DNA from: Escherichia coli
GTDB taxonomy: Bacteria; Pseudomonadota; Gammaproteobacteria; Enterobacterales; Enterobacteriaceae
NCBI RefSeq assembly: GCF_041886205.1
Contig: NZ_CP169029.1
DNA: 64,000 nt
Strand: one strand, 5' to 3'
Position numbers: made by a program. Numbering within the stretch: position 1 is the stretch's first letter; each line of letters starts with the position of its first letter. Shown one piece after another: positions 58,871-64,000 of this stretch.

Positions 58871-61800
58871 TACGGGGAGCATTTGTAGGCCTGATAAGAC
58901 GCGGCAAGCGTCGCATCAGGCATTGGCGCGGCCAAACATCAACCTCACTTATTCTGCGTGTGCAGCATATAGTTCACATCCACGCCGGGGCCGAGCTTAA
59001 AGGAATTAGTGATCGGGTTGTAATGTAGCCCGGTTATATGTCGCTCTTTAAGGCTTGTCTGATCTACCCAGCCAAGCAGCTCTGCCGGTTTAATAAACTT
59101 CTTCACATCATGCGTGCCTTTGGGCACCATGCGCAAAATATATTCCGCGCCAACCACCGCCATCAGCCATGACTTGCCGTTGCGGTTAAGCGTCGAGAAA
59201 AAGACATCGCCGCCTGGTTTCACCAGTTGCGCACAGGCTCTGACCACTGACTGCGGATCGGGTACGTGCTCCAGCATCTCCATGCAGGTCACCACATCAT
59301 ACTGCCCGGCATGTTTTGCCGCGTGCTCTTCCACGGTTTCCTGCACGTAATCCACCTGAATGCCGCTTTCCAGTGCGTGCAGTTTTGCCACCTGCAATGG
59401 CTCAAAGCCCATATCCAGACCGGTCACCGTCGCGCCTTCCCGCGCCATGCTCTCGGCCAGAATGCCGCCGCCACAACCGACATCGAGCACCTTTTTGCCA
59501 AATAAACCGCCAGCACGCTCGGCAATATAGCCCAGACGCAGCGGGTTAATGCGGTGCAGCGGTTTGAACTCACCTTCAAGATCCCACCAGCGGGAGGCGA
59601 CGGCTTCAAATTTAGCGATCTCTTCGTGGTCTACGTTATGGTTTACCGGCGATTTTTCGGCATTCATTGGCACTTCTACTCCGTAATTGGCAAGACAAAC
59701 GAGTATATCAGGCATTGGAGGTGAATAAAGCGTATAGGTTTACCTCAATCTGCGCGGCTGTGTTATAATTTGCGACCTTTGAATCCGGGATACAGTAGAG
59801 GGATAGCGGTTAGATGAGCGACCTTGCGAGAGAAATTACACCGGTCAACATTGAGGAAGAGCTGAAGAGCTCCTATCTGGATTATGCGATGTCGGTCATT
59901 GTTGGCCGTGCGCTGCCGGATGTCCGAGATGGCCTGAAGCCGGTACACCGTCGCGTACTTTACGCCATGAACGTACTAGGCAATGACTGGAACAAAGCCT
60001 ATAAAAAATCTGCCCGTGTCGTTGGTGACGTAATCGGTAAATACCATCCCCATGGTGACTCGGCGGTTTATGACACGATCGTCCGTATGGCGCAGCCATT
60101 CTCGCTGCGTTACATGCTGGTAGACGGTCAGGGTAACTTCGGTTCCATCGACGGCGACTCTGCGGCGGCAATGCGTTATACGGAAATCCGTCTGGCGAAA
60201 ATTGCCCATGAACTGATGGCCGATCTCGAAAAAGAGACGGTCGATTTCGTTGATAACTATGACGGCACGGAAAAAATTCCGGACGTCATGCCAACCAAAA
60301 TTCCTAACCTGCTGGTGAACGGTTCTTCCGGTATTGCCGTAGGTATGGCAACCAACATCCCGCCGCACAACCTGACGGAAGTCATCAACGGTTGTCTGGC
60401 GTATATCGATGATGAAGACATCAGCATTGAAGGGCTGATGGAACACATCCCGGGGCCGGACTTCCCGACGGCGGCAATCATTAACGGTCGTCGCGGTATT
60501 GAAGAAGCTTACCGTACCGGTCGCGGCAAGGTGTATATCCGCGCTCGCGCAGAAGTGGAAGTTGACGCCAAAACCGGTCGTGAAACCATTATCGTCCACG
60601 AAATTCCGTATCAGGTAAACAAAGCGCGCCTGATCGAGAAGATTGCGGAACTGGTAAAAGAAAAACGCGTGGAAGGCATCAGCGCGCTGCGTGACGAGTC
60701 TGACAAAGACGGTATGCGCATCGTGATTGAAGTGAAACGCGATGCGGTCGGTGAAGTTGTGCTTAACAACCTCTACTCCCAGACCCAGTTGCAGGTTTCT
60801 TTCGGTATCAACATGGTGGCATTGCACCATGGTCAGCCGAAGATCATGAACCTGAAAGACATCATCGCGGCGTTTGTTCGTCACCGCCGTGAAGTGGTGA
60901 CCCGTCGTACTATTTTCGAACTGCGTAAAGCTCGCGATCGTGCTCATATCCTTGAAGCATTAGCCGTGGCGCTGGCGAACATCGACCCGATCATCGAACT
61001 GATCCGTCATGCGCCGACGCCTGCAGAAGCGAAAACTGCGCTGGTTGCTAATCCGTGGCAGCTGGGCAACGTTGCCGCCATGTTGGAACGTGCTGGCGAC
61101 GATGCTGCGCGTCCGGAATGGCTGGAGCCAGAGTTCGGCGTGCGTGATGGTCTGTACTACCTGACCGAACAGCAAGCTCAGGCGATTCTGGATCTGCGTT
61201 TGCAGAAACTGACCGGCCTTGAGCACGAAAAACTGCTCGACGAATACAAAGAGCTGCTGGATCAGATCGCGGAACTGTTGCGTATTCTTGGTAGCGCCGA
61301 TCGTCTGATGGAAGTGATCCGCGAAGAGCTGGAGCTGGTTCGTGAACAGTTCGGTGACAAACGTCGTACTGAAATCACCGCCAACAGCGCAGACATCAAC
61401 CTGGAAGATCTGATCACCCAGGAAGATGTGGTCGTGACGCTCTCTCACCAGGGCTACGTTAAATATCAGCCGCTTTCTGAATACGAAGCGCAGCGTCGTG
61501 GCGGGAAAGGTAAATCTGCCGCACGTATTAAAGAAGAAGACTTTATCGACCGACTGCTGGTGGCGAACACGCACGACCATATTCTGTGCTTCTCCAGCCG
61601 TGGTCGCGTCTATTCGATGAAAGTTTACCAGTTGCCGGAAGCCACTCGTGGCGCGCGCGGTCGTCCGATCGTCAACCTGCTGCCGCTGGAGCAGGACGAA
61701 CGTATCACCGCGATCCTGCCGGTGACCGAGTTTGAAGAAGGCGTGAAAGTCTTCATGGCGACCGCTAACGGTACTGTGAAGAAAACCGTCCTCACCGAAT

Positions 61801-64000
61801 TCAACCGTCTGCGTACCGCCGGTAAAGTGGCGATCAAACTGGTTGAAGGCGATGAGCTGATCGGCGTTGACCTGACCAGTGGCGAAGATGAAGTAATGCT
61901 GTTCTCCGCCGAAGGTAAAGTGGTGCGCTTTAAAGAGTCTTCTGTCCGTGCGATGGGCTGCAATACCACTGGTGTGCGCGGTATTCGCTTAGGCGAAGGC
62001 GATAAAGTCGTCTCTCTGATCGTGCCTCGTGGCGATGGCGCAATCCTCACCGCAACGCAGAACGGTTATGGTAAACGTACCGCAGTGGCGGAATACCCAA
62101 CCAAGTCGCGTGCGACGAAAGGGGTTATCTCCATCAAGGTTACCGAACGTAACGGTTTAGTGGTTGGCGCGGTACAGGTAGATGACTGCGACCAGATCAT
62201 GATGATCACCGATGCCGGTACGCTGGTACGTACTCGCGTTTCAGAAATCAGCATCGTGGGCCGTAACACCCAGGGCGTGATCCTCATCCGTACTGCGGAA
62301 GATGAAAACGTAGTGGGTCTGCAACGTGTTGCTGAACCGGTTGACGAGGAAGATCTCGATACCATCGACGGCAGTGCCGCGGAAGGGGACGATGAAATCG
62401 CTCCGGAAGTGGACGTTGACGACGAGCCAGAAGAAGAATAATTTTACTTCTTCATGCCAAAAGGGAGCTATCTCCCTTGTTTGAATTGAAAAGTCCAGGC
62501 TGCAAAGTCTGGGCTTTTGTCGTATTAGGGCACGGTAAAGTTTGGCTGTGCCCGTAAAAAATGGCTGGCTATACACAAGGAATGTGGCAATGAGTGGTGA
62601 AAAAAAGGCGAAAGGCTGGCGGTTCTATGGTCTTGTAGGTTTTGGCGCAATAGTACTGCTTTCCGCTGGCGTCTGGGCGTTGCAATATGCTGGCAGTGGG
62701 CCAGAAAAAACGTTGTCGCCGCTGGTGGTGCACAACAATCTGCAAATCGATCTCAATGAGCCGGACCTCTTTCTCGACAGCGACTCTCTGAGCCAGCTTC
62801 CCAAAGATCTCCTCACCATTCCGTTTCTCCACGATGTTCTGAGTGAAGATTTCGTTTTCTATTATCAGAATCATGCCGATCGTCTGGGCATTGAAGGCAG
62901 CATTCGTCGCATTGTCTATGAACACGATCTCACGCTGAAAGATAAACTCTTTTCGTCACTCTTAGATCAGCCCGCGCAGGCTGCGCTATGGCACGATAAA
63001 CAAGGCCATCTTTCACATTACATGGTGCTGATCCAGCGCAGTGGTTTAAGCAAACTGCTGGAGCCATTGTTGTTTGCCGCTACCAGCGACAGCCAGTTAA
63101 GCAAAACGGAAATCAGTAGCATCAAGATAAATAGTGAAACTATTCCTGTTTATCAGTTGCGCTATAACGGCAATAACGCCCTGATGTTCGCGACATATCA
63201 GGACAAGATGCTGGTGTTTTCCAGCACGGATATGCTGTTTAAAGATGATCAGCAGGATACCGAAGCCACGGCGATCGCAAGTGATTTGTTGAGCGGCAAA
63301 AAACGCTGGCAAGCCAGCTTTGGCCTGGAAGAGCGTGCTGCCGAAAAAACGCCAGTACGCCAGCGCATCGTGGTCAGCGCCAGGTTGCTGGGTTTTGGCT
63401 ACCAGCGGTTAATGCCTTCTTTTGCTGGCGTACGCTTCGAAATGGGTAACGACGGCTGGCACAGTTTTGTGGCGTTAAATGATGAATCCGCCAGCGTAGA
63501 TGCCAGTTTCGATTTTACGCCGGTCTGGAACAGTATGCCTGCCGGGGCCAGCTTCTGTGTGGCGGTGCCGTATTCACACGGTATTGCCGAAGAGATGCTT
63601 TCGCACATCAGCCAGGAAAACGACAAGCTGAATGGGGCGTTAGACGGTGCCGCGGGGCTGTGCTGGTATGAAGACTCAAAATTGCAAACCCCGCTGTTTG
63701 TCGGCCAGTTTGATGGCACTGCCGAACAGGCGCAATTGCCAGGGAAACTGTTTACGCAAAATATTGGTGCGCACGAAAGCAAAGCGCCAGAAGGTGTTTT
63801 GCCGGTAAGCCAGACTCAGCAGGGCGAAGCGCAAATCTGGCGTCGCGAAGTGAGTTCCCGATACGGTCAGTATCCGAAAGCCCAGGCGGCGCAAACCGAT
63901 CAATTAATGTCGGATTATTTTTTCCGTGTGTCGCTGGCGATGCAAAACAAAACGCTGCTTTTCTCCCTCGATGACACGCTGGTTAATAACGCCCTGCAAA

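Follow-up and report, generated by a model that had tools for sequence, protein, structure and literature searches.

The gyrA gene at the end of the 64-kb stretch of Escherichia coli DNA analysed here (64,000 nucleotides, hereafter the window) is, with a probability of about 0.96, an ordinary wild-type chromosomal E. coli gyrA, with wild-type quinolone-binding residues and the known promoter PgyrA, and nothing in the sequence contradicts this reading. The gene can be described by the following features, the last two read from the sequence:

59814..62441, plus strand: gyrA coding sequence, 875 codons followed by a TAA stop, identified by its TIGR01063 score, its alignments with K-12 and PDB 6rks_A, and its Pfam domains
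60177..60179, plus strand: codon 122 (TAT), the catalytic Tyr122, with Arg121 directly before it
61491..61511, plus strand: GyrA box QRRGGKG, residues 560-566, in the C-terminal domain

Judged from its sequence, the interval 59814-62441 is chromosomal E. coli gyrA, and its product is subunit A of DNA gyrase, the subunit for DNA breakage and reunion. The protein scores 1309.7 bits with the NCBIfam equivalog model for DNA gyrase subunit A (TIGR01063, cut-off 877), whereas the score of 581.5 obtained with the NCBIfam parC_Gneg model falls under that model's own cut-off of 628.9, and Pfam recognises a DNA_topoisoIV domain and six DNA_gyraseA_C repeats. The QRRGGKG GyrA box sets GyrA apart from ParC. 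As 874 of its 875 residues are those of the characterised K-12 GyrA, the protein would be expected to supercoil DNA together with GyrB. The gene order yfaL-ubiG-gyrA-yfaA, with ubiG divergent and yfaA downstream of gyrA, agrees with annotated E. coli genomes; the window spans nuoF to yfaA and contains no other topoisomerase gene, and an Rfam search found no RNA family within or around gyrA.

As codon n of gyrA begins at 59814+3(n-1), the quinolone-resistance-determining region (QRDR) and its two principal codons were read directly:

60012..60131, plus strand: QRDR, codons 67-106, amino acids unchanged from K-12 MG1655
60060..60062, plus strand: codon 83, TCG, Ser, wild type
60072..60074, plus strand: codon 87, GAC, Asp, wild type

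An earlier note made from the sequence alone had reported Ser (TCG) and Asp (GAC) at codons 83 and 87 and had proposed an alignment of the QRDR to the reference gene; both codons lie exactly where it had placed them, and the alignment showed codons 67-106 to be residue-identical to K-12. Three silent changes distinguish the region from K-12 (codon 85 GTC>GTT, codon 91 CGC>CGT and codon 100 TAT>TAC), and wild-type residues also occupy GyrA positions 51, 67, 81, 82, 84, 106, 119 and 196, among them the further sites with reported substitutions, A51, A119 and A196. This genotype is a direct read that involves no statistical claim. The note had also considered that an alternative start might shift the codon numbers, and this objection fails: an in-frame TAG (59811-59813) abuts the ATG, so misnumbering through an upstream start is impossible, the next in-frame ATG is only found at codon 26, and the N-terminus pairs one to one with that of PDB 6rks_A, whose residue 1 corresponds to the start used here and in K-12 b2231. 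The wild-type Ser83/Asp87 genotype is commonplace, since at least 2651 complete E. coli genomes out of 5425 carry the wild-type core (codons 76-90).

In E. coli gyrase, Ser83 and Asp87 anchor a water-metal ion bridge, and the substitutions S83L and D87N strongly lower sensitivity to ciprofloxacin (PMC9917921). In the GyrA described here the two residues, on helix IV, would likewise hold the water-Mg2+ bridge by which fluoroquinolones attach to the cleavage complex, and because both are wild type the enzyme should, by analogy with work on K-12, be fully drug-sensitive. The strain thus lacks the usual first step towards fluoroquinolone resistance, GyrA S83L. The term "quinolone-susceptible genotype" used in the note is justified for gyrA, with its wild-type Ser83, Asp87 and QRDR, but not as a phenotype of the isolate, which other loci also shape. 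A wild-type gyrA excludes high-level resistance by the usual target-site route and does not by itself prove that the isolate is susceptible, since the window does not reach parC, parE, gyrB, plasmid-borne genes or efflux.

Two readings that would weaken this picture were considered, and one of them concerns the single residue at which the protein departs from K-12:

61845..61847, plus strand: codon 678, GAA, Glu (GAC, Asp in K-12), the sole amino-acid difference from K-12 and a common polymorphism of the C-terminal domain

If D678E modified resistance, this GyrA would not truly be wild type. The substitution is listed among putative resistance substitutions seen after exposure to enrofloxacin and called recently described as resistance-associated (PMC11721436), and some resistant clones, ST405 and ST1193 among them, carry it, often alongside S83L/D87N (PMC10638923). 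However, in a fluoroquinolone survey the allele differing from K-12 by D678E only was carried by 152 susceptible isolates and a single resistant one (PMC7067475), the change of Asp to Glu is conservative, residue 678 belongs to the C-terminal DNA-wrapping domain (Pfam repeats), far from the drug pocket of helix IV, and its pairing with S83L/D87N in certain sequence types is what one would expect of a lineage marker. A contribution of D678E to resistance is therefore hardly credible, and the substitution would best be regarded as a neutral lineage polymorphism of the C-terminal beta-pinwheel. The other reading is that quinolone susceptibility is reduced despite wild-type gyrA by determinants outside the window, such as qnr, aac(6')-Ib-cr, qepA, oqxAB, efflux up-regulation (marR/acrR/soxR) or changes in gyrB, parC or parE, in which case "susceptible genotype" would over-read the data. 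Resistance is common among sequenced strains, as the wild-type core (codons 76-90) is missing from about half of complete E. coli genomes, and the window, covering only nuoF to yfaA, holds no other topoisomerase gene. Against this, clinically relevant fluoroquinolone resistance in E. coli usually depends on mutations of the target, GyrA 83 and 87 being the commonest sites (PMC9917921), alleles with an unchanged QRDR are overwhelmingly susceptible (179 of 181 isolates for the K-12 allele, PMC7067475, besides the D678E-only figures above), and no plasmid-type quinolone-resistance gene is annotated within the window. We consider such hidden resistance quite unlikely, and retain the reading of a drug-sensitive, wild-type GyrA.

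The 146-bp spacer between ubiG and gyrA contains the elements of the gyrA promoter:

59739..59744, plus strand: weak -35-like hexamer TTTACC, 4/6 to TTGACA, at a non-optimal spacing of 19 bp
59740..59745, plus strand: alternative -35-like hexamer TTACCT, 3/6, at 18 bp
59759..59762, plus strand: TGTG motif of PgyrA, named in PMC8695583
59761..59769, plus strand: extended -10 TGTTATAAT, made of TG (59761-62), T (59763) and consensus TATAAT (59764-69, 6/6), identical in K-12
59774..59777, plus strand: predicted transcription start, placed by geometry about 7 nt past the -10 hexamer
59798..59802, plus strand: Shine-Dalgarno-like GAGGG, 11 nt upstream of the ATG

The extended -10 TGTTATAAT lies at exactly the position that had been proposed for it, and contains the only TATAAT of the spacer. 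The proposed lack of a good -35 was also borne out, no hexamer at 15-18 bp from the -10 exceeding 3/6 to TTGACA and a 4/6 match appearing only at 19 bp. The gyrA promoter escaped a standard two-hexamer scan, a result that is uninformative because the scan demands a -35. The predicted start implies a leader of about 38-40 nt. As a motif, the extended -10 does not stand out statistically within the window: TGNTATAAT occurs once in the 64 kb against 1.9 +/- 1.5 expected in shuffles, and is thus no rarer than chance, although the same shuffle rate gives only about 0.002 expected matches for a given 146-bp spacer and a given strand. The motif TGNTATAAT owes its meaning to its position and to the identity with the K-12 promoter rather than to the motif alone. 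The DNA from 59750 to 59813, up to the ATG and including TGTTATAAT, is identical to K-12 PgyrA, with the nearest SNP at 59749, and the 84 bp 5' of the ATG are found at 95% identity or more in 5424 of 5425 genomes. A full-text literature search for TGTTATAAT together with gyrA returned unrelated papers only.

The gyrA gene would therefore be transcribed, as far as the anatomy of the promoter indicates, from the known PgyrA, with its TGn-extended consensus -10 and its weak, badly spaced -35. In K-12, gyrA has a mapped transcription start and its transcription is stimulated by relaxation (PMC6170449, PMC6639932); negative supercoiling inhibits PgyrA there, a response that belongs to supercoiling homeostasis, and by analogy the promoter described here would behave likewise. 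According to the summary of Menzel & Gellert 1987 and Straney et al. 1994 in PMC6170449, the relaxation response maps to about 20 bp around the -10, whose TATAAT is named in the title of Straney 1994 as cited there, and these 20 bp are the same here as in K-12. The earlier note had described the extended -10 with a poor -35 as being in line with the supercoiling-sensitive gyrA promoter; the literature agrees with this link, yet the missing -35 is not in itself the established cause of the sensitivity, which that summary places around the -10. One could alternatively suppose that TTTACC (19 bp) or TTACCT (18 bp) works as a -35 and that the over-long spacer, not the TG extension, gives the preference for relaxed DNA. 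The 4/6 match of TTTACC to TTGACA would fit, and spacer length is widely invoked as a source of supercoiling sensitivity, as in the discussion of PMC4770202 and in PMC8695583. However, PMC8695583 itself reports that spacer length affects this sensitivity only slightly, the deletion and mutation work summarised in PMC6170449 puts the response around the -10 and not in the -35 or spacer, and position 59749, in the spacer, varies among E. coli genomes with no known consequence. This explanation appears unlikely to us, and we favour a response seated around the extended -10.

The neighbouring gene deserves a comment in this respect. A candidate extended -10 for ubiG, TGATATACT (minus strand, 59710->59702), with its TATACT at 59702-59707, lies back to back with the gyrA promoter, about 57 bp separating the two -10 hexamers, and divergent transcription damps PgyrA via negative supercoils in artificial constructs (PMC6170449). 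By analogy, ubiG transcription could send negative supercoils into PgyrA and damp it, and a slight influence on function might also come from the SNP at 59749 or from D678E; we give little credit to either idea. If true, the coupling of ubiG and PgyrA would tie ubiquinone biosynthesis and respiration to gyrase expression.

Two hairpins lie downstream of the gyrA stop codon:

62461..62478, plus strand: first hairpin past the stop, with a 7-bp stem and a 4-nt loop, followed by GTTTGAATTG
62489..62518, plus strand: second hairpin, with a 13-bp stem that includes A-tract/U-tract pairing, ending in UUUU and followed by GUCGUAUU

The second hairpin (62489..62518) is the most terminator-like element 3' of gyrA and probably acts as its terminator.

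Compared with gyrA of K-12 MG1655 (b2231, NP_416734.1), the gene has the same length (875 aa), start, stop and neighbours, with ubiG divergent and yfaA downstream. The two coding sequences differ by 34 nucleotides (98.71% identity) in 33 codons, 32 of which are changed synonymously, with the single exception of D678E. Outside the gene, the first 159 nt past the stop, which span the gyrA-yfaA spacer, are the same in K-12, and two intergenic SNPs are found at 59720 (T>G) and 59749 (A>T, in the promoter spacer). The locus, with its promoter and its 3' region, is thus standard for E. coli, a matter of routine annotation that raises no new biological question, and K-12 results on supercoiling-dependent regulation should therefore apply here. 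Among other genomes, the gyrA region is matched at 95% identity or more in 5425 of 5426, and only 38 of 5425 reach at least 99% over 2.9 kb; the idea of an unusual allele that this low count might suggest was dismissed, 32 of the 33 changed codons being synonymous and the protein being a common variant. The DNA from 59650 to 62560 (2911 nt, including gyrA) is 100% identical in four complete genomes, those of E. coli VE-T9, XJ5.2, 6EVA and wlxctx60, so that the protein is the same as their GyrA, WP_001281251.1; in the rest of the window, IS1 insertions and deletions set it apart from VE-T9. Solved E. coli gyrase structures (for example PDB 6rks, 7z9c, 3nuh and 1ab4) give full-length 1:1 alignments and residue numbering therefore transfers directly; 6rks_A aligns from 1-875 to 1-875 and differs at residue 678 alone (Glu here, Asp in the structure). 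Resistant GyrA alleles (S83L, D87N/G/Y and their combinations) have the same gene and backbone as the one described here; S83L takes one transition (TCG>TTG) and D87N also one (GAC>AAC), neither of which is present in this gene.

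A single long open reading frame on the plus strand, from the ATG at 59814 to the TAA at 62439-62441, encodes a protein of 875 amino acids (direct reading of 59400-62700 and ORF listing) that scores 1309.7 bits against the NCBIfam gyrA equivalog model TIGR01063 (cut-off 877) and falls under the cut-off of the Gram-negative ParC model. Pfam places the DNA_topoisoIV breakage-reunion domain at residues 32-507, together with six DNA_gyraseA_C repeats, and both Arg121-Tyr122 and the GyrA box QRRGGKG (residues 560-566) are present. Residues 1-875 align one to one with PDB 6rks_A, position 678 being the sole mismatch, and structural numbering can therefore be transferred to this GyrA. 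Codon n starts at 59814+3(n-1); a misnumbering through an alternative start, which the earlier note had named as its own refutation, is excluded by an in-frame TAG (59811-59813) that directly abuts the ATG, the next in-frame start being only at codon 26. The features of the locus are:

58945-59715, minus strand, mechanically called ubiG ORF (ATG at 59715, 256 aa)
59710 to 59702, minus strand, candidate extended -10 of ubiG, TGATATACT
59759-59762, TGTG motif
59764-59769, plus strand, -10 hexamer TATAAT of gyrA, with TGT directly before it
60060-60062, plus strand, gyrA codon 83, TCG (Ser)
60072-60074, plus strand, gyrA codon 87, GAC (Asp)
61845-61847, gyrA codon 678, GAC in K-12 and GAA in the window (D678E)
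62461-62478, 62489-62518 and 62528-62553, three hairpins between gyrA and yfaA

The wild-type Ser83 and Asp87 codons reported in the earlier note were read at exactly these positions, and all its other coordinates proved right as well. In E. coli gyrase the quinolone is bound through a water-metal ion bridge for which these two residues are the anchors; sensitivity to ciprofloxacin is strongly reduced in S83L and D87N enzymes and essentially lost in the double mutant (PMC9917921). This GyrA retains both anchors. The quinolone-resistance-determining region (QRDR, residues 67-106) has the same amino acids as that of K-12 MG1655 and differs only by silent changes at codons 85 (GTC>GTT), 91 (CGC>CGT) and 100 (TAT>TAC); the other positions at which resistance has been reported (51, 81, 82, 84, 106, 119 and 196) are wild type, and Arg462 is kept. 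A count of genomes that carry the 45-nt core (codons 76-90) without any mismatch gave 2012 for the form with GTT at codon 85 and 639 for the K-12 GTC form, so that at least 2651 of 5425 genomes (49%, a lower bound as further silent variants fall outside the count) carry a wild-type core and the genotype is commonplace. The reading as a quinolone-susceptible genotype holds for gyrA, but the susceptibility of the isolate cannot be deduced from gyrA alone, because parC, parE, gyrB, plasmid-mediated determinants and efflux regulators lie outside the window.

Compared with the K-12 gyrA coding sequence (b2231), there are 34 nucleotide differences (98.71% identity) in 33 codons, 32 of them synonymous; D678E, in the C-terminal domain, is the sole amino-acid change. 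One paper names D678E among putative resistance substitutions (PMC11721436). Population data argue against a meaningful effect on resistance: of the isolates with the allele carrying only D678E relative to K-12, 152 were susceptible and 1 was resistant (PMC7067475). Certain sequence types combine D678E with S83L/D87N (PMC10638923), which is how a lineage marker would behave. Fourteen of the 34 differences, silent except for D678E, fall within 400 nt (61614-62013, gyrA nt 1801-2200, C-terminal domain), a cluster that may be a recombination mosaic.

The region 59650-62560 (2911 nt) has a match of at least 95% identity in 5425 of 5426 complete E. coli genomes. In the same search one genome had no match, one match lay on a plasmid-labelled record and one genome had two matching places, which are probably assembly or labelling oddities. 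Four complete genomes (VE-T9, XJ5.2, 6EVA and wlxctx60) are 100% identical over this region, and all four annotate it as gyrA (WP_001281251.1) between divergent ubiG and yfaA. Over its full length, nuoF to yfaA, the window is collinear with VE-T9, the closest complete genome, and about 99.94% identical to it, IS1-associated differences excepted. In VE-T9 an IS1 disrupts an MFS transporter gene close to rhmD; the window has no such insertion there (about 36672-36681). At 46765-48838 the genes of the window are intact, where VE-T9 shows another IS1 together with truncated pseudogenes. VE-T9 annotates elaD and a neighbouring gene as frameshifted (11435-13691 of its sequence L003, which corresponds to about 10900-13200 in the window) and yfaZ with an internal stop (L003 32129-32671, corresponding to about 31600-32150 in the window). 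Further features of the window are:

69-111, plus strand, nuoG RNA motif (RF01748) between nuoF and nuoG, 50.3 bits in Rfam (gathering score 33)
46015-47121, minus strand, intact 368-aa ORF with no family match
47551-48429, minus strand, intact LysR regulator, 292 aa
48581-49771, plus strand, intact MFS transporter, 396 aa

NCBIfam NF007272 (PRK09729), a model for a "hypothetical protein" of 68 aa, is matched by the C-terminal 67 residues of the LysR protein; this may be the K-12 yfaH remnant.

The 148-nt gyrA-yfaA spacer (62442-62589) is 100% identical to that of K-12 and folds into the three hairpins, all of them strong, with an MFE of -49.9 kcal/mol (z = -6.7 against shuffles); one terminator alone would need less structure. 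Its second hairpin (62489-62518) ends in a U-run and, as the most terminator-like of the three, would be the predicted terminator. An Rfam search near gyrA, this spacer included, returned no RNA family.

Upstream, the 146-bp ubiG-gyrA spacer (59668-59813) contains one TATAAT, which with its TGT forms a canonical TGn-extended -10, TGTTATAAT, found at 59761-59769 just as claimed. The absence of a good -35 was also borne out, as the best candidates are TTACCT (3/6 matches, 18 bp spacing) and TTTACC (4/6, 19 bp), and a standard two-hexamer promoter scan did not call the site. The motif by itself is not rare, TGNTATAAT occurring once in the window against 1.9 +/- 1.5 expected; the window rate gives an expectation of about 0.002 for one 146-bp spacer on one strand. 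By geometry, transcription would start at about 59774-59777. Only two differences from K-12 occur in the spacer, 59720 (T>G) and 59749 (A>T, within the promoter spacer at about -27), with none from 59750 to the ATG. The 84 bp 5' of the ATG are at least 95% identical in 5424 of 5425 genomes and exactly identical in 518, O157:H7 strains among them. The gyrA promoter (PgyrA) is known as a weak promoter that relaxation stimulates and negative supercoiling inhibits, a response whose determinant has been placed in the roughly 20 bp surrounding the -10 (PMC6170449; PMC6639932); it carries a TGTG motif (PMC8695583), and the title of Straney et al. (1994) gives its -10 as TATAAT. An extended -10 with a poor -35 is consistent with this literature, but what has been published as the determinant is the -10 region together with the start of the transcript, not the missing -35 as such. 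With this qualification and the restriction of the genotype to gyrA, the observation is confirmed and its interpretation supported; gene, genotype and promoter are all well known already.

The least ordinary point of the locus is the candidate ubiG promoter facing away from PgyrA. Its -10 precedes the annotated ubiG ATG (59667, 240 aa in K-12 and RefSeq) by 35 nt and is arranged back to back with that of gyrA, with about 57 bp between the hexamers; since it lies downstream of the ATG of the longer mechanical ORF, the shorter annotated start is favoured. In artificial divergent constructs, PgyrA is inhibited through transcription-coupled supercoiling (PMC6170449). By analogy, ubiG and gyrA would be a candidate natural divergent pair resembling the artificial one, in which the two promoters could possibly be coupled via transcription-driven supercoiling.
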